From a virus (taxonomy: Duplodnaviria > Heunggongvirae > Uroviricota > Caudoviricetes): DNA of 7,700 nt. Shown here piece by piece: positions 1 through 7,700 of the stretch; the first letter of the stretch is position 1; every line of letters starts with the position of its first letter. Below the pieces are notes generated by a model that saw nothing but the letters and a program-made list of their open reading frames with translations, did no database searches and was not told the origin of the DNA. Location: IMG/VR virus record IMGVR_UViG_2529292718_000010. One strand, 5' to 3'. Made by a program: the position numbers and the translations under genes.

Positions 1-851
1 TCCTGCGTGAAGCGCTGTTCCGGTGTCTGCCTGAACTGGCGAAGTTCTCGCCTGTCAGCAACGTCAGCCATCCACTGCTCCAGTAGCTGGTTAACATGGG
101 CGAAGCTGTCGAACCGGCGGTACCGGACGAAGAAGTTTTCCTTGAGGTATTTCACCATCCGTTCAACCTTACCTTTGGTTCTGGCCCTTCGTGGACGGCA
201 GGCCCGTGGCAGGAAGCCATAGTGATCGGCCAGCAGCAGGAACCCGGAGTTGAACACCACCTTCCCATTGTTATTTTTCAGAACTGCGGCTTTCTGGTTA
301 TCGACCAGCACGGTTTTCACGCTACCGCCGAAGTAGCGAAAGGCGCGGACCAGTGACTCATAGGTATGTTCAGCATCCTGCTTTGGTGCCGCGAAGACAT
401 GGAAGCGACGTGAGAACCCCAGCGTATTAACCGCGAAGTTAACCCTGCATCGTTGCCCGGCAACCTCAGCCTCAACTTCTCCCCAGTCATGCTGTAGCTG
501 GTAACCGGGCTGAGTTTCGAAGCGAACCGTTTTCTTCGATGGCCGCATCTTACGTTTGGGCTGGATGTAGTAGCGCAACATGGAACGGCCACCGGTATAA
601 CCCATCGCTTTGATTTCCGCCAGGATGACCTCGCCGTTCCAGACGTTCTCAGCCAGACGCATATCTATATAGTCCATGAACGGCTTGAGTTTGGCCATTT
701 TGTGGCGTGTTTTTCTGGCCGGAGGTTCCGGGTATTTCAGGTACCGTCTGACGGTCCGCTCAGAGCAACCAACCTGAGTGGCAATATCAACAATATACGC
801 ACCTTGCTGGCGCATTTGCTTTATCATGTAAAAATCCTCTCTGCTCAGCAT
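1..851 (-). CDS. istA: IS21-family transposase IstA, N-terminal 283 codons (3' end outside window)
   Basis: Manual minus-strand translation: MLSREDFYMIKQMRQQGAYIVDIATQVGCSERTVRRYLKYPEPPARKTRHKMAKLKPFMDYIDMRLAENVWNGEVILAEIKAMGYTGGRSMLRYYIQPKRKMRPSKKTVRFETQPGYQLQHDWGEVEVAGQRCRVNFAVNTLGFSRRFHVFAAPKQDAEHTYESLVRAFRYFGGSVKTVLVDNQKAAVLKNNNGKVVFNSGFLLLADHYGFLPRACRPRRARTKGKVERMVKYLKENFFVRYRRFDSFAHVNQLLEQWMADVADRRELRQFRQTPEQRFTQ... with no stop. N-terminal HTH followed by a DDE-type core is typical of IstA. Missing from the ORF track only because no stop codon lies in the window. Confidence 0.8.
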   Translation of the reverse strand, partial: MLSREDFYMIKQMRQQGAYIVDIATQVGCSERTVRRYLKYPEPPARKTRHKMAKLKPFMDYIDMRLAENVWNGEVILAEIKAMGYTGGRSMLRYYIQPKRKMRPSKKTVRFETQPGYQLQHDWGEVEAEVAGQRCRVNFAVNTLGFSRRFHVFAAPKQDAEHTYESLVRAFRYFGGSVKTVLVDNQKAAVLKNNNGKVVFNSGFLLLADHYGFLPRACRPRRARTKGKVERMVKYLKENFFVRYRRFDSFAHVNQLLEQWMADVADRRELRQFRQTPEQRFTQ

Positions 852-952
852 GAGTGTTCCCTTTGTGGTGTAGGAACCTTAAGGAAACAACATGTTGGGT
901 GGAGCGGACAATCCAAATGGTGAATTACTGTCTTATATCATTGGCGCTGACA
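1..952 (-). mobile_element. IS21-family insertion sequence, partial (left end plus 5' part of istA); continues beyond window start
   Basis: Minus-strand translation from ATG at 851 is open for 283 codons to the window edge and reads as IstA-like transposase (see istA feature). The non-coding end 852-952 terminates with TGTCAG on the minus strand exactly where integrase homology stops. Outer boundary is approximate (about +/-10 bp). Confidence 0.7.
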
Positions 953-1945
953 TAATGGGACGCCTGACTGAATCAGCCAGCTTGCCCAGGTGTGTCTGAG
1001 GTCATGGAAACGGAAATCTTCAATTCCTGCACGACGACAAGCTGATAGCCATGATGTCTTGCTGTCGATGCGCATCTTCCTGACCGCAGGCGTTGATGTT
1101 CCATCTGCTCGCTTAGCCGCCTTGGTATGTACAAACACCCATTTGTGATGCTTGCCTATTTGATCACGCAACACTTTACAGGCGGTATCGTTCAGCGCCA
1201 CACCAATGGCGCGGTTTGATTTGCTCTCTTCTGGATTCACCCAGGCAACTCGTCGCTGCATGTCGATTTGTTGCCATTCCAGATTTATGATGTTCGACTT
1301 TCTCAGACCAGTTGCCAGCGCAAACTTGACGACAGATTTCAGTGGTTCGGGGCACTCATCAATAAGGCGTTTTGCTTCCTCCTTTTCCAGCCATCTGACT
1401 CGCTTGTTTCTGACCGCTGGTATCTTGATGACAGGCGCTTTTTCCAGCCACTTCCAGTCGCGTTCTGCAGCACGGAGAATGGCCTTTATCATGGCAAGAT
1501 GCTTTGCCTTTGTCTGAGTTGATACTGGCTTTGGTTCATAAACAGGCGGTTCTTTACCTTTCCTGATGGCGGCCTGAACTTTCTGTTTCCATATTTCTTT
1601 CGTCTTTCTGTTATGCATTCTGCTTACAGCAGAGTAAATCTTTGCCTCCGAGATATCTTTAAGCCTTATACCCTCAAAATGTTCAAGCCAGAACTCAATC
1701 CGGCTTTTATCTGAATCGAGAGATTTTTTATCAGCTTTTTCCTCAAGCCATCTTAGGCAGGCCTCTTCAAAAGTGACATCAGGTAAATCCCCTAGCTTTT
1801 CTACTCGCCAGAGTTCTGCTTTTCGCTTGTCGTGCAACTCCTGAGCTTGCCGCTTGTCCTTTGTGCCAAGAGATTCCTTAATTCGTTTCCCGCCCGGGAG
1901 CGAATACGAGGCATACCATATTTCATTTCTGCGGAAGAGTGACAT
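938..1945 (-). pseudogene. intD: Phage tyrosine integrase (DLP12 IntD-like), 3'-truncated by the IS21-family insertion
   Basis: 335-aa ORF with a phage-integrase N-terminus ([34 protein letters not shown]...) and the conserved [18 protein letters not shown] box, then only CQRQ-stop, which is read from IS sequence. The downstream LLGH...Y catalytic tyrosine segment is absent. Strong RBS (AGAGGAAAG) before the ATG at 1945. The intD symbol is by family and context, not verified. Confidence 0.85.
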
Positions 1946-2172
1946 TTTCTTTCCTCTGTTATGCCATCACCCGCGCTCACCTGGACAGTATGCAGCGGAG
2001 ACTGAAGCGCCGCAATGCAGGCTTGCCGTGTTGTGAGGTAAGGAGATTTTGGCTTGGTTGGATCTTTACGTGTTGCCTGTAGGCGGCCTGTTCGTATCCA
2101 GTTGGTGGCGGTTGGTCTGGATATCTTAAGAAACTGACAGGCCTCATCGAGTGTGAGGCTGTATGATTCCAT
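1801..2172 (-). CDS. xis: Excisionase-like protein (lambda Xis-type), 123 codons with an unusually long C-terminal extension
   Basis: ORF-track 133-aa ORF trimmed to the Met with a good RBS (AGAGGT, 5 nt spacing): [31 protein letters not shown]... resembles the lambda Xis N-terminal pattern. Lies immediately upstream of int on the same strand. The 3' end overlaps int by 145 bp. Confidence 0.6.
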
Positions 2173-2422
2173 GGTTACCTCTGCTTTTTGAACGCATGTC
2201 ACGTAACTTCTTAATGTGTTCTGCCGTTTCGATCTCTTCTGCTATCCGATCTGCATCAGCTTTATTCACAGGTTCAAAGTCATGATTAAAGCGGAACATG
2301 CTGGCGATACATGTTCTGCCTTTTCGGATGTAGTGAACTTTGTTGTGGGTAGAACGCAGGATTTTGCAGGGAGTGCCGTGGTGGTCGACGTACCAGGTGT
2401 TAGGCAAAATGATTCTGAACAT
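2144..2422 (-). CDS. Hypothetical small protein (92 aa), first gene of the ORF92-xis-int string
   Basis: ORF MFRIILPNTWYVDHHGTPCKILRSTHNKVHYIRKGRTCIASMFRFNHDFEPVNK... with RBS AGGTG 5-6 nt upstream of the ATG. Overlaps the xis start by 29 bp, consistent with translational coupling. Family not recognised with confidence. Confidence 0.45.
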   Translation of the reverse strand: MFRIILPNTWYVDHHGTPCKILRSTHNKVHYIRKGRTCIASMFRFNHDFEPVNKADADRIAEEIETAEHIKKLRDMRSKSRGNHGIIQPHTR

Positions 2423-2435
2423 TTTTACACCTCAG

Positions 2436-2495
2436 TTGGAAGGTATGGCGAAAACACAGGTTATGTGGCTGAAAGAGGGGATTATTAAGGCGTGA
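2436..2495 (+). pseudogene. ybcO: 3' remnant of a ybcO-like (DUF1364) gene
   Basis: In-frame reading ends ...[19 protein letters not shown]-stop, matching my recollection of the YbcO C-terminus (...LEGMARTQVIWLKEGVIKA). Further upstream in the same frame the sequence is unrelated and hits a stop at 2334-2336. The stop (2493-2495) overlaps the rusA GTG start (GTGA), a typical coupled junction. Confidence 0.4.
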
Positions 2496-2854
2496 ATACC
2501 TACAGTATCACATTCCCCTGGCCTCCGAGCAATAATCGCTATTCCCGCCATAATCGCGGGCGCACGCACGTCAGCGCAGAGGGGCAGGCATACCGCGATA
2601 ACGTCGCCAGAATCATTAAAAACGCAATGCTGGATATCGGCCTGGCTATCCCTGTGAAAATCCGCATTGAGTGCCACATGCCGGATCGCCGTCGCCGTGA
2701 CCTGGATAATCTGCAAAAAGCCGCTTTTGACGCACTCACTAAAGCAGGTTTCTGGCTGGATGATGCTCAGGTCGTTGATTACCGCGTTGTGAAGATGCCT
2801 GTTACCAAAGGTGGGAGGCTGGAACTGACCATCACCGAAATGGGGAATGAATGA
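2492..2854 (+). CDS. rusA: Holliday junction resolvase RusA
   Basis: 120-aa ORF from a GTG start: [120 protein letters not shown], recognised as RusA. Length and position upstream of Q fit the nin region. Confidence 0.9.
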
Positions 2855-2991
2855 TGTTTGAGTTTAATATGGCAGAACTTCTTCGCCACCGCTGGATGCG
2901 CCTGCGCTTATATCGTTTCCCCAGTTCTGTTTTGACCGATTACCGAATACTGAGGAATTACGCCAAAACCCTGACAGGAGCAGGAGTATGA
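2851..2991 (+). CDS. ylcG: Small nin-region protein YlcG-like (46 aa)
   Basis: ATG overlaps the rusA stop (ATGA). Translation [46 protein letters not shown] matches my recollection of DLP12 YlcG. Below the ORF-track size cutoff, so found by hand. Confidence 0.6.
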
Positions 2992-3076
2992 AGTCAGAGA
3001 TAACAATCAACTAATACTGTTTTATTGATTTTTGCTTGTAATTGGCGTTCTGGTCTGATTTTTGTGGAGTAAGTTG

Positions 3077-3460
3077 ATGCGTGATATTCAGATGGTTCTT
3101 GAGCGTTGGGGAGCGTGGGCGGCTAATAATCATGAAGATGTGACCTGGTCGTCCATTGCCGCCGGTTTTAAGGGATTAATTACTTCAAAAGTAAAATCTC
3201 GCCCGCAATGTTGTGACGATGACGCGATGATCATTTGCGGGTGCATGGCCCGTCTGAAAAAGAACAACAGCGATTTGCACGATTTATTAGTAGATTATTA
3301 TGTAGTCGGTATGACATTCATGTCACTGGCAGGTAAGCATTGCTGCTCTGATGGTTATATCGGGAAAAGGTTACAGAAGGCTGAGGGCATAATTGAAGGG
3401 ATGTTAATGGCATTAGATATCCGGTTAGAGATGGATATCGTTGTTAATAACTCTAATTAA
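3077..3460 (+). CDS. quuD: Late-gene antiterminator Q (QuuD-like)
   Basis: ORF-track ORF trimmed to the ATG at 3077 with RBS GGAGTAAG: [64 protein letters not shown]... (127 aa). Cys-rich, and sits between the nin genes and the lysis cassette as in lambdoid phages. Confidence 0.85.
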
Positions 3461-3477
3461 TATGCCAATTGTTTACT

Positions 3478-3511
3478 AAAAATTATTAAAAATGGGGCGT
3501 TGAGACGCCCC
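3478..3511 (-). terminator. Intrinsic terminator for minus-strand transcription (candidate nmpC terminator)
   Basis: Stem GGGGCGT (3494-3500), loop TGAG, stem ACGCCCC (3505-3511). On the minus strand it is followed by ATTTTTAATAATTTTT. Confidence 0.45.
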
Positions 3512-3599
3512 CAAAAATAAAGGGTAATATATAACAGAAGGTTTATATAGTTAGAAGCAAGGTTGTGCTTCTAAAGGAAGTGGCTTGAGGGAGCCACTT

Positions 3600-3639
3600 A
3601 TATGTTGGGGAGGCAAAGCCTCCCGCAACATATCTTTTT
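3600..3639 (+). terminator. Intrinsic terminator for plus-strand transcription downstream of Q (tR'-like)
   Basis: 15-bp stem with one bulge (ATATGTTGGGGAGGC / GCCTCCCGCAACATAT), AAA loop, followed by CTTTTT at 3634-3639. It lies 11 bp from the nmpC stop on the opposite strand. Confidence 0.55.
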
Positions 3640-3649
3640 CGTAATCAGA

Positions 3650-4732
3650 TTAGAACTGATACACCAGACCTACAGCGACGATGTCGTCGGTATCAATACC
3701 AGCTGTTTTGGTAAACTTACTATCGTCAATTAAGTTGATTTTGTAATCAACAAAAGTGGACATGTTTTTATTAAAGTAGTAAGTAGCACCGACATCGACA
3801 TACTTGACTAAGTCTCGGTCACCATGAACACCAAGGTCTTTACCTTTTGACTGAAGGTAAGCAACAGATGGTCGCAGACCGAAGTCAAACTGATATTGTG
3901 CTACTGCTTCAAAGTTTTGTGCTTTGTTTGCAATATGGTTATTACCAAAAACGGTCATATTCTGAGTTTCAGAATATGTGGTAGCCAGATAGATATTGTT
4001 CGCATCATATTTCAGGCCTGCAGCCCATACTTCCGCATTTTTGCCGGAGGCATTGAATTTGCTCTTACCATAGGCGACCTGACCGTCAGTGCGATCTGAT
4101 TTAGCATAGGTTGCACCCACGCCGAATCCTTCATACTCATAAGTAGTGGAGAAACCGAAACCATCACCATTGGCTTCAGTTACGTCAGTGCGGTCATTTT
4201 TACCCTGATACTGAGCAGCAAAGTTCAGGCCATCGACCAGACCAAAGAAGTCGTTGTTACGATAGGTTGCAACACCAGTGGTGCGACCAGTCATGAACAC
4301 ATCTGTTTGGGTCCAGGTATCGCCACCGAATTCTGGCAGAACGTCAGTCCACGCACCGATGTCGTATGCTACCCCGTAGTTACGGCCGTAATCGATTGAG
4401 CCGTAGTCACCGAATTTCAGGCCTGCAAATGCAAGACGGGTTTTGTCTTTGGAGGAACCTTGAGATTCAGCGCGGTTGCCTTTGAATTCATATTCCCACT
4501 GACCGAAACCAGTCAGTTGATCGTTGATTTGGGTTTCACCTTTGAAGCCAAGACGGGCATAAGTAGTATCACCATCATCTGCATCGTTAGAGGAAAAGTA
4601 GTGCTTGGCATTAACTTTCCCGTACAGATCCAGCTTGTTACTGTCTTTATTATAAATTTCAGCTGCCTGAGCAGACATCGTCATCAGTACTGATGCAGCT
4701 ACAGCAGAAATTGCCACTGTTAATTTTTTCAT
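3650..4732 (-). CDS. nmpC: Phage-encoded general porin (NmpC/Lc/OmpD-type), apparently intact
   Basis: 360-aa ORF with signal peptide [23 protein letters not shown], a Gly/Tyr/Asp-rich beta-barrel composition and the C-terminal ...VGLVYQF aromatic end typical of outer-membrane porins. Located between Q and the holin on the opposite strand, as in DLP12/PA-2. Confidence 0.9.
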
Positions 4733-5320
4733 CGTGAGCCCTTTTTTTTGAACTATTATTAAAAAATGATGTCACTGCGCGATAAATATTCATCTAATCA
4801 ATGTGATTATTTCAAGATGTAAGTTTTAGTTTCTCATTTAATTTGTGAAGTAGATCTCTATTTTTATCTGAACTTTTTCTATCGAAACCTATTTATAGCT
4901 CTTATTTGAACAAAAATAAACCTATTAGCTAATTTATATTAATGGCTGTTATTTATGGGGGTTCTATAATTCGGTGGTTTAATTTAAATCAACTAAAAAT
5001 AACGCCGGAAATTATTTATTGGTTATTTGTTGAGGTTTTCTTATATATTTGTGGTGGTGTTTTGAACACTCGGTAGCATTCTCATAAATATCATTCAGTG
5101 GTTTACGTACGTAAAAAATTGGTTATGCTGTTAAGAGTGGTTACTTCGTCACACAGCTTAAACCCGCCGTCGAGCTGGTTTTTCCATTTTTTGAGTCTCG
5201 ATATTAGCTGATAACTCAATACCTGAGTTATTCACTGACTCCGAGTCTGTTACGTTTCTGCTTTTTTGCGATACGTTGTATTCCCTCAATTTACACCCGC
5301 TTTGTCTGCGAGGTGGGGTT
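4733..5320. promoter_or_regulatory. AT-rich intergenic region holding the nmpC promoter (minus) and possibly late-operon control elements (plus)
   Basis: About 590 bp of strongly AT-rich non-coding DNA between the divergent nmpC and essD starts, with no ORF of 60 aa or more. Contains a 14-bp perfect palindrome TTTACGTACGTAAA at 5102-5115. Exact promoters not resolved. Confidence 0.4.
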
Positions 5321-5536
5321 ATGAAATCCATGGATAAGTTAACAACGGGTGTCGCCTATGGCACCTCAGCAGGTAGTGCCGGTTACTGGTTTTTACAGCT
5401 GCTCGATAAAGTCACGCCCTCACAGTGGGCAGCAATAGGTGTGCTGGGTAGCCTGGTATTTGGCCTGCTGACGTACCTGACAAACCTTTATTTCAAGATT
5501 AAAGAAGATAAGCGCAAGGCTGCGAGAGGTGAATAA
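5321..5536 (+). CDS. essD: Class II holin (S21-type pinholin) with dual-start motif
   Basis: [71 protein letters not shown] (71 aa): two TMDs, the first Gly/Ala-rich. Met1/Met4 (MKSM) is the classic holin/antiholin dual start. RBS GAGGTGG. The ORF-track start at 5276 is a TTG extension. Stop overlaps the endolysin ATG. Confidence 0.9.
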
Positions 5537-6033
5537 TGCCTCCATCATTACGAAAAGCCGTTGCTGCTGCTATTGGTGGCGGAGCAATTGCTATAGCATC
5601 AGTGTTAATCACTGGCCCAAGTGGTAACGATGGTCTGAAAGGTGTCAGCTACATACCATACAAAGATATTGTTGGTGTATGGACTGTATGTCACGGGCAT
5701 ACAGGAAAAGACATCATGCTCGGTAAAACGTATACCAAAGCAGAATGCAAAGCCCTCCTGAATAAAGACCTTGCCACGGTCGCCAGACAAATTAACCCGT
5801 ACATAAAAGTTGATATACCGGAAACAACGCGCGGCGCTCTTTACTCGTTCGTTTACAACGTGGGCGCTGGCAATTTCAGAACATCGACGCTTCTTCGCAA
5901 AATAAACCAGGGCGATATCAAAGGCGCATGTGATCAGCTACGTCGCTGGACATATGCTGGCGGTAAGCAATGGAAAGGTCTCATGACTCGTCGTGAGATT
6001 GAGCGTGAAATCTGTTTGTGGGGTCAGCAATGA
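5536..6033 (+). CDS. rrrD: SAR endolysin (T4-lysozyme family, R21/RrrD-like)
   Basis: 165 aa. N-terminal signal-anchor-release domain [20 protein letters not shown], then the lysozyme core ...[25 protein letters not shown]. Codon 35 is AAA (Lys), see findings. Confidence 0.9.
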
Positions 6034-6491
6034 ACAGAGTAACCGCGATTATCTCCGCTCTGGTTATCTGCATCATCGTCTGCCTGTCATGGGCTGTTAA
6101 TCATTACCGTGATAACGCCATTACCTACAAAGCCCAGCGCGACAAAAATGCCAGAGAACTGAAGCTGGCGAACGCGGCAATTACTGACATGCAGATGCGC
6201 CAGCGTGATGTTGCTGCACTGGATGAAAAATACACGAAGGAGTTAGCTAATGCGAAAGCTGAAAATGATGCTCTGCGTGATGATGTTGCCGCTGGTCGTC
6301 GTCGGTTGCACATCAAAGCAGTCTGTCAGTCAGTGCGTGAAGCCACCACCGCCTCCGGCGTGGATAATGCAGCCTCCCCCCGACTGGCAGACACCGCTGA
6401 ACGGGATTATTTCACCCTCAGAGAGAGGCTGATCACTATGCAAAAACAACTGGAAGGAACCCAGAAGTATATTAATGAGCAGTGCAGATAG
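6030..6491 (+). CDS. rzpD: i-spanin Rz
   Basis: ATG overlaps the endolysin stop (ATGA). [55 protein letters not shown]... (153 aa): N-terminal TMD plus coiled-coil periplasmic domain, lambda Rz-like. The ORF-track start at 6018 is an upstream alternative start. Confidence 0.85.
6250..6432 (+). CDS. rzoD: o-spanin Rz1, embedded in the +1 frame of Rz
   Basis: [60 protein letters not shown] (60 aa): lipobox VVGC, proline-rich. Strong SD AAGGAG 7 nt upstream. Entirely inside Rz, the classic embedded arrangement. Confidence 0.8.
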
Positions 6492-6522
6492 AGCTGCCCA
6501 TATCGATGGGCAACTCATGCAA

Positions 6523-6816
6523 TTATTGTGAGCAATACACACGCGCTTCCAGCGGAGTATAAATGCCTAAAGTAATAAAACCGAGCAATCCATTTACGAA
6601 TGTTTGCTGGGTTTCTGTTTTAACAACATTTTCTGCGCCGCCACAAATTTTGGCTGCATCAACAGTTTTCTCCTGTCCAATTCCCGAAACGAAGAAGTGA
6701 TGGGTGATGGTTTCCTTTGGTGTTACTGCTGTCGGTTTGTTTCCAACAGTAAACGTCTGTTGAGCACATCCTGTAATAAGCATTGCCAGAGCGGCAGAAA
6801 ACAACATTTTTTTCAT
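6523..6816 (-). CDS. borD: Bor outer-membrane lipoprotein (serum-resistance factor)
   Basis: ORF-track 113-aa ORF trimmed to MKKMLFSAALAMLITGCAQQTFTVGNKPTAVTPKETITHHFFVSGIGQEKTVDAAKICGGAENVVKTETQQTFVNGLLGFITLGIYTPLEARVYCSQ (97 aa). Lipobox LITGC, RBS AGGA. Convergent with Rz. Confidence 0.9.
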   Translation of the reverse strand: MKKMLFSAALAMLITGCAQQTFTVGNKPTAVTPKETITHHFFVSGIGQEKTVDAAKICGGAENVVKTETQQTFVNGLLGFITLGIYTPLEARVYCSQ

Positions 6817-7175
6817 CTTATTATCCTGCATTGTTAAAAACGGCAGAATCCTATGTGACAACAATTAAACGATAGTTAAATGGATTGATGAAAATTAAAA
6901 CTATATAGGTGGATGCTCAGCCTATTGGAGGAGGGGGGCACTCAGAATCCTGTGGAATGAAATAAACCGCTCTTTCTGTCCATTACCCTTTTAGCTGCGC
7001 TGTATCGTCGCCGTATTCCCGCATTAACCATGACCGTAGCCCGACGGGGAATTCCTTCTGCGTGAGTGTGCGGGAATAATCAAAAACGATGCACACCGGG
7101 TTTTACTGTGCTGACAGACGCAGGGTTACCCTCATAGTCGCTTTTCCGGTGCGATGGTGGAAGAAACCGGGATGT

Positions 7176-7326
7176 TTATTCATCATCACTCTGGATTGAT
7201 GTATATGCTCTCTTTTCTGACGTTAGTCTCCGACGGCAGGCTTCAATGACCCAGGCTGAGAAATTCCCAGACCCTTTTTGCTCAAGAGCGATGTTAATTT
7301 GTTCAATCATTTGGTTAGGAAAGCGG
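7176..7326 (-). pseudogene. ylcI: ylcI-like (DUF3950) gene, 5'-truncated by IS1
   Basis: Minus-strand reading from the IS1 junction: ...(I)RFPNQMIEQINIALEQKGSGNFSAWVIEACRRRLTSEKRAYTSIQSDDE-stop. This matches my recollection of the YlcI/YnfO family motif NIRFPNQMIEQINIAL.QKGSGNFSAWVIEACRRRL. The first ~18 codons are replaced by IS1 starting at 7327. Confidence 0.5.
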
Positions 7327-7349
7327 GGTAATGACTCCAACTTATTGAT
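7327..7349. repeat. IS1 terminal inverted repeat
   Basis: GGTAATGACTCCAACTTATTGAT matches the canonical IS1 end sequence. Confidence 0.85.
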
Positions 7350-7700
7350 AGTGTTTTATGTTCAGATAATGCCCGATGACTTTGTCATGCAGCTCCACCG
7401 ATTTTGAGAACGACAGCGACTTCCGTCCCAGCCGTGCCAGGTGCTGCCTCAGATTCAGGTTATGCCGCTCAATTCGCTGCGTATATCGCTTGCTGATTGC
7501 GTGCAGCTTTCCCTTCAGGCGGGATTCATACAGCGGCCAGCCATCCGTCATCCATACCACGACCTCAAAGGCCGACAGCAGGCTCAGAAGACGCGCCAGT
7601 GTGGCCAGAGTGCGTTCACCGAAAACGTGCGCCACAACTGTCCTCCGTATCCTGTCATACGCGTAAAACAGCCAGCGCTGACGTGATTTAGCACCGACGT
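7342..7700 (-). CDS. insB: IS1 transposase InsB, C-terminal part (5' end outside window)
   Basis: Minus-strand frame is open from the window end to the stop at 7342-7344: ...[118 protein letters not shown]. The ORF-track 97-aa ORF is its 3' part starting at an internal GTG. Several substitutions versus the IS1 InsB I recall. Confidence 0.85.

Follow-up and report, generated by a model that had tools for sequence, protein, structure and literature searches.

A lysine in place of the catalytic glutamate in an RrrD-type SAR endolysin from a DLP12-type prophage remnant of Escherichia coli

Introduction

The closest described relatives of the endolysin analysed here are R21 of phage 21 (3HDE/3HDF) and RrrD/YbcS of the K-12 prophage DLP12 (4ZPU). 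R21 is a 165-residue enzyme with a signal-anchor-release (SAR) N-terminus, Asp44, Thr50 and a pinholin as its partner, and the SAR function of this N-terminal segment is established. The triad Glu35/Asp44/Thr50 has been listed for both the P21 and the DLP12 endolysins (PMC8228626, Table 3); the family motif is Glu-x8-(Asp/Cys)-x5-Thr, and a conserved Arg forms a salt bridge with the Glu (PMC8228626). T4 lysozyme, whose general acid is Glu11 (PMC5606550), belongs to the same GH24 fold family and has the same triad spacing, but it is soluble, lacks a SAR domain and shares only ~26% identity with our protein. At the level of the locus, K-12 RrrD and WP_001135280.1 (BL21, E. coli C, ETEC) represent the same gene within the same essD-rrrD-rzpD/rzoD cassette, and DLP12-type loci also share the neighbouring quuD, nmpC-type porin and bor/iss genes. 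Among phages, the best match is Escherichia phage mEp332 (PV340541.1), whose complete genome was deposited with K-12 MG1655 given as the host.

Here, we analyse a stretch of 7,700 bases (the window), which matches contig AQDE01000020.1 (draft E. coli assembly GCA_000355455.2) exactly. The window contains a small DLP12-type lambdoid prophage remnant. Its endolysin is an RrrD/R21 allele by descent, and from its sequence we would class it as a natural catalytic-null variant, or putative pseudo-enzyme, of a known SAR endolysin. Very probably, a lineage-specific G>A change turned Glu35 into Lys and killed the enzyme, as part of the neutral decay of a cryptic prophage in one clone.

Results

[quoted passage not shown]

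The endolysin gene rrrD (5536..6033, + strand) encodes a protein of 165 residues that is assigned to the GH24/T4-lysozyme fold by PF00959 and by its matches to 4ZPU and 3HDE, and that equals the mEp332 endolysin apart from E35K. The PF00959 (Phage_lysozyme) match reaches 152.3 bits against a cut-off of 22.3 and covers residues 35-156. Codon 35 (5638..5640, + strand) is AAA, coding for Lys, where all relatives carry GAA for the catalytic Glu35; the changed base is 5638 (G>A). Direct reading of these three bases gives the codon and the context exactly as they were written in the preliminary description, N-D-G-L-K35-G-V-S-Y-I-P-Y-K-D44-I-V-G-V-W-T50. The two other triad residues are intact: Asp44 (GAT, 5665..5667, + strand) and Thr50 (ACT, 5683..5685, + strand), each present in 134/134 sequences. 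Thus, the protein retains the GH24 Asp at +9 and Thr at +15, and has Lys35 at the place of the defining catalytic Glu, the general acid.

The assignment of position 35 is based on alignments with enzymes of known structure. In a phmmer search against the PDB, K35 falls opposite Glu35 of RrrD (4ZPU) and of phage 21 R (3HDE/3HDF) in gapless, end-to-end alignments (E about 1e-111), and in the more distant lysozyme 9KBS a Glu-Gly pair stands opposite the Lys-Gly of the window. BLASTP against T4 lysozyme, at ~26% identity, pairs Glu11 with K35, Asp20 with D44 and Thr26 with T50. The preliminary description had proposed that D44 and T50 are in register and that a Glu is expected at residue 35, and the alignments with 4ZPU, 3HDE and T4 lysozyme uphold this proposal: in all of them the residue aligned to K35 is the catalytic Glu.

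Two objections raised in the same description fail on these data. A catalytic Glu displaced to another position, for example D32, is rejected by the gapless 4ZPU/3HDE alignments (164/165 residues identical) and by the pairing of K35 with T4 E11. As for Lys being an ordinary variant of functional enzymes, both 4ZPU and 3HDE have Glu, as do 131/133 homologues in a set free of motif constraint, in which the two Lys entries are the identical protein and a rearranged, misaligned sequence. Lys is also absent from phage records in this allele background and from the other loci surveyed in IMG/VR, metagenomes and GTDB representatives, and this candidate was likewise rejected.

The remaining differences from the known enzymes are few. 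K-12-type RrrD alleles share 164/165 residues with our protein. E35K sets it apart from the common allele WP_001135280.1, and V159I is a further difference from the K-12 RrrD crystal sequence. From R21 it differs at two residues, which are Glu35 and Met98 in R21 and Lys35 and Thr98 in the window.

The lysis cassette is otherwise intact

The SAR segment (residues 1-27; 5536..5616, + strand) is unchanged, with every residue equal to that of phage 21 R in 3HDE. Identity with R21 (3HDE) extends over residues 1-34, and the segment has the weakly hydrophobic, Gly/Ala-rich composition of SAR domains. Among the rrrD homologues, two loci (L053 and L205) carry a one-residue in-frame deletion in the SAR segment (AVAAIGGG vs AVAAAIGGG) and, where the start codon is usually located, a codon other than ATG.

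Immediately upstream lies essD (5321..5536, + strand), an intact phage-21-type pinholin of 71 residues with an M1/M4 dual start (PF04971, 121 bits), which is 100% identical to the mEp332 holin. The essD stop and the rrrD start overlap in TAATG, so that the endolysin directly adjoins a pinholin of the S21 family. Downstream, rzpD (6030..6491, + strand) encodes an intact i-spanin of the Rz family with 153 residues (PF03245, 182 bits), and embedded in its +1 frame is rzoD (6250..6432, + strand), an intact Rz1 o-spanin lipoprotein (PF06085, 72 bits); both are 100% identical to their mEp332 counterparts. The Rz1 protein contains a lipobox-like LVVVGC, and together the two genes form a two-component spanin. 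For rzpD, the start is GTG 6018 (157 aa) in the mechanical ORF list, and ATG 6030 (153 aa) in gene calls and RefSeq relatives.

All four lysis genes score far above the cut-offs of their Pfam families (phage 21 holin, Phage_lysozyme, Rz and Rz1). They follow the Q antiterminator in the DLP12-type order of holin, endolysin, and i-spanin with embedded o-spanin, with 99.9% identity and collinearity to annotated loci. The preliminary description of an intact pinholin and intact spanins thus agrees with the identity of these proteins to those of mEp332.

The endolysin itself is 99.4% (164/165) identical to that of mEp332, residue 35 being the sole difference, and no second-site changes were found in the endolysin or its partner genes relative to mEp332. 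Since the pinholin, the spanins and the rest of the endolysin equal those of mEp332, E35K is the sole lesion in the cassette and is accompanied by no compensating change. The two endolysins therefore constitute a natural near-isogenic pair, with the mEp332 enzyme as the active and that of the window as the inactive member, as far as can be predicted from the substitution.

The prophage remnant is reduced and bounded by insertion sequences

The left boundary of the remnant is the end of an IS21-like element, ISEc62 (1..951, - strand), represented by istA with an rve domain and 99.9-100% identity to annotated ISEc62. The insertion shortens the integrase gene intD (938..1945, - strand) to 335 aa, as compared with 387 aa in relatives. 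The missing C-terminal part should contain the catalytic Tyr, and the remnant is probably no longer able to excise.

After intD, the gene order continues with a DUF4222 gene, rusA, ylcG and quuD. The DUF4222 gene and rusA lie almost directly beside intD (1945-2492), as the early region is deleted and the ybcL-ybcO interval of BL21(DE3) is absent from the remnant. The remnant is thereby smaller than the K-12/BL21-type locus, in addition to being bounded by ISEc62 and IS1. This reduced layout without the early region is common to ETEC O6:H16-type genomes, e.g. F5656C1.

The late antiterminator gene quuD (3077..3460, + strand), of the Q type, is intact and located upstream of the lysis cassette; it is supported by a PF06530 gene call and is annotated as quuD in relatives. 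Between quuD and the cassette lies an intact nmpC/ompC-type porin gene of 360 aa (3650-4732, - strand; NCBIfam porin OmpC subfamily, 519 bits). The porin gene of BL21(DE3), unlike the intact copy in the window, is interrupted by IS1.

Downstream of the cassette, bor/iss is followed by a ylcI fragment and then by the end of an IS1 element. In the mechanical ORF list bor/iss starts at TTG 6864 (113 aa), and gene calls and RefSeq relatives have a 97-aa form ending at 6816. The IS1 end (7327..7700, - strand; DDE_Tnp_IS1) is inserted in ylcI and marks the right boundary of the remnant, the homology of relatives ending at 7326. The broken ylcI gene (DUF3950; 7176-7349, - strand) and its IS1 junction are also found in other contigs of the K35 lineage. 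Together, the ISEc62 and IS1 junctions account for the observation that every contig carrying the allele is at most 7.7 kb long.

The K35 allele recurs in independent assemblies

A change of this kind in a draft contig could be a sequencing or assembly error, the true gene having Glu35. The window is indeed a short draft contig, and it has three private differences from its relatives (2515, 2544 and 4373), all of them A>C directly 5' of CC, so that the assembly may contain errors. Two of the three affect RusA (L8F and Y18S). Read on the opposite strand, an A>C change before CC becomes GGT>GGG, a well-known systematic error of sequencing. As the lineage's other contigs carry A at 2515, 2544 and 4373, these three differences may well be such errors.

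Base 5638 behaves differently. An exact-sequence look-up finds the identical 165-aa K35 protein on 16 contigs, and eight of these 16 comprise four NCBI assemblies (GCA_000355455.2, GCA_000356685.2, GCA_049980005.1 and GCA_040073515.1), three assemblies of SRA runs (SRR1184450, SRR1184670 and SRR1184671) and one ENA metagenome. The same protein is thus obtained from assemblies of different submitters as well as from read-level assemblies of the three runs and the metagenome. The longer K35 contigs are collinear with the window, have the same ISEc62 and IS1 junctions where they reach them, and carry A at 5638 together with a synonymous T at 2506. Three of the contigs (L005-L007) keep A at 5638 and lack the three private A>C changes of the window. 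Furthermore, the G>A change in CTGGAAGG does not match the GGT>GGG error pattern. The presence of the K35 allele in independent assemblies shows that the change did not arise as an error of this one contig, and the caution of the preliminary description about position 5638 is answered by the reproduction of the base elsewhere. We therefore reject a sequencing error, to which we assign next to no probability, since the allele recurs in assemblies free of the private differences of the window.

The allele is confined to one small lineage

The nearest complete genomes are of the ETEC O6:H16 type, e.g. F5656C1, which differs from the window at 5 of 6,375 bases over 952-7326 and has G at 5638. Given this G in the nearest genomes, the change is a GAA>AAA transition, the single-base event that had been suggested at the outset. 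Over these 6.4 kb only two changes are specific to the lineage, namely the one at 5638, on the catalytic codon, and the synonymous one at 2506.

To measure how frequent the allele is, we searched complete E. coli genomes with a query of 41 bases designed so that each 28-mer seed covers the variant base. The G version matches 3,989 places in 3,045 of the 5,426 genomes, and the A version matches none of the 5,426. IMG/VR, GTDB and metagenome collections were scanned with a degenerate pattern encoding N31 to T50. Among IMG/VR viral contigs, Lys is found once (a 6,840-bp contig of the same lineage) and Glu at least 120 times; the counts are 0 for Lys and 8 for Glu in GTDB species representatives, and 0 for Lys and at least 120 for Glu in JGI metagenomes. 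Patterns with every other non-Glu codon at position 35 gave no further match in IMG/VR. From these counts, the allele arose once, within a single small clone, and Glu is otherwise kept everywhere, prophage copies included. Our literature search returned no publication naming the K35-carrying assemblies or runs, and no report of Lys at this position in R21 or RrrD.

Three of the GTDB representatives with an E. coli-type rrrD motif belong to bins of Segatella copri, a Bacillota bacterium and a soil Proteobacteria MAG (L134, L139 and L141, respectively); here the motif most likely reflects contamination of the bins by E. coli prophage DNA.

Discussion

Expected effect of the substitution

On the basis of the alignments and of what is known of the related enzymes, we consider it highly likely that the K35 enzyme has lost its muralytic activity. 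From its identity to R21, the protein would still be made, exported through its SAR segment, anchored to the inner membrane and set free once this membrane is depolarised by the pinholin. Lacking the proton donor of the Glu-x8-Asp-x5-Thr triad, however, it would be unable to cleave the MurNAc-GlcNAc bond, and Lys35 would stand where the conserved Arg normally makes its salt bridge to Glu. If the wall is left undegraded, the spanins, which act after wall degradation, would have nothing to act on. The pinholin of phage 21 alone is lethal when triggered (PMC9239132), and the present cassette would kill via its pinholin and yet be unable to lyse.

Could the K35 enzyme nevertheless retain useful muralytic activity, either residual or with an acidic residue such as D32 as the proton donor? 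D32 lies three residues upstream of K35 and is invariant in the homologue set, and T4-type active sites are known to tolerate rewiring: Asp20Cys is active, P1 Lyz uses Cys51, and T26H switches the mechanism (PMC8228626, PMC5606550). These cases affect the Asp or the Thr, never the Glu, which is present in 131/133 homologues and in every surveyed copy outside the K35 lineage. In addition, at the pH of the periplasm Lys would serve poorly as a general acid, and it would be expected to repel the conserved Arg partner. The E11 of T4 lysozyme reportedly tolerated none of 13 substitutions, Lys included, in the work of Rennell and colleagues of 1991. The comparison with the SAR endolysin gp22 of phage Mu points in the same direction. 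Its E37A variant resembles our protein in that the triad Glu of an E-x8-D-x5-T SAR endolysin is replaced, and differs from it in being laboratory-made, in having Ala instead of Lys and in belonging to a distantly related protein; this variant is experimentally inactive (PMC9239132). Retained activity thus appears very improbable to us.

Even less credible is a new, non-catalytic job of the protein as a peptidoglycan-binding factor, a decoy, or a dominant-negative inhibitor of lysis by related phages. In favour of such a job, the rest of the protein is intact, GH24 domains have been recruited to functions other than lysis, and there is a weak NCBIfam match to SpmX, a localisation factor of the lysozyme family. 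That match reaches 43.8 bits, far under the model cut-off of 700; one substitution stands alone, with no accompanying protein changes, and the lineage is tiny.

Drift or selection

The most economical explanation of the loss would be that the mutation arose as a cryptic prophage decayed neutrally and became fixed in a single small clone. Degradation of the remnant is already under way: like the ETEC relatives it lacks the early region, and in this lineage ISEc62 has inserted in intD and IS1 in ylcI. To place this in context, we surveyed 248 motif-selected loci, in which the pattern fixed residues 31-50, so that the survey informs on the rate of truncation only. Among the 220 complete homologous loci from the Glu-motif scans, rrrD is intact at 165 aa in 212 and truncated in 6 (~3%), indicating that the gene is lost at a low background rate.

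Alternatively, the loss of activity may have been selected, because it disarms a SAR endolysin that may leak and harm the wall or cuts the shedding of immunostimulatory peptidoglycan in what is probably an enteric-pathogen lineage, in parallel to Shigella. In Shigella, which has lost the DLP12 lysis module, its restoration increases the release of peptidoglycan and makes the bacteria less virulent (PMC7918800). The module is expressed in K-12, where it influences vesiculation (PMC7918800) and, under quinolone stress, the turnover of peptidoglycan (PMC12287860). The nearest relatives of our lineage are ETEC O6:H16 strains, and the fact that one of the two lineage-specific changes in 6.4 kb hits the catalytic codon is what selection for loss of activity would also produce. 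On the other side, the allele has a single origin without parallel events, no other non-Glu codon appears in the codon-35 scans, and the allele is confined to one small clone (0/5,426 complete genomes). Truncation of ~3% of the sampled homologous loci in any case fits background decay, and E35K was itself picked post hoc. Taken together, selection for the loss seems unlikely. We regard as more doubtful still the specific version in which E35K is the selected disarming of a domesticated module, leaving, in a lineage of enteric pathogens, an exported RrrD that would bind peptidoglycan without cutting it, beside a working pinholin and spanins. If this were true, the bacteria would shed less peptidoglycan or undergo less self-lysis, and the allele would be the counterpart, by point mutation, of Shigella's loss of the DLP12 lysis module.

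Implications

The allele leaves the understanding of lysis unchanged: on our preferred reading, neutral decay, a single point mutation in one clone is ordinary prophage decay and will not surprise specialists. The strong retention of Glu even in prophage copies, over hundreds of sampled loci, supports purifying selection or young cassettes. The value of the allele would lie elsewhere, as a natural, otherwise isogenic and putatively catalytic-null form of a well-studied SAR endolysin in a cassette identical to that of mEp332. As such it might serve as a clean control for the host roles proposed for the DLP12 module, namely vesiculation, biofilm and peptidoglycan release.

The K35 rrrD also exposes a blind spot of automatic annotation. 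Public sources call the exact K35 protein 'lysozyme RrrD'. A full-length gene with a strong family score has thus kept this name despite the missing catalytic residue, and such missense pseudogenisation goes unseen by annotation.
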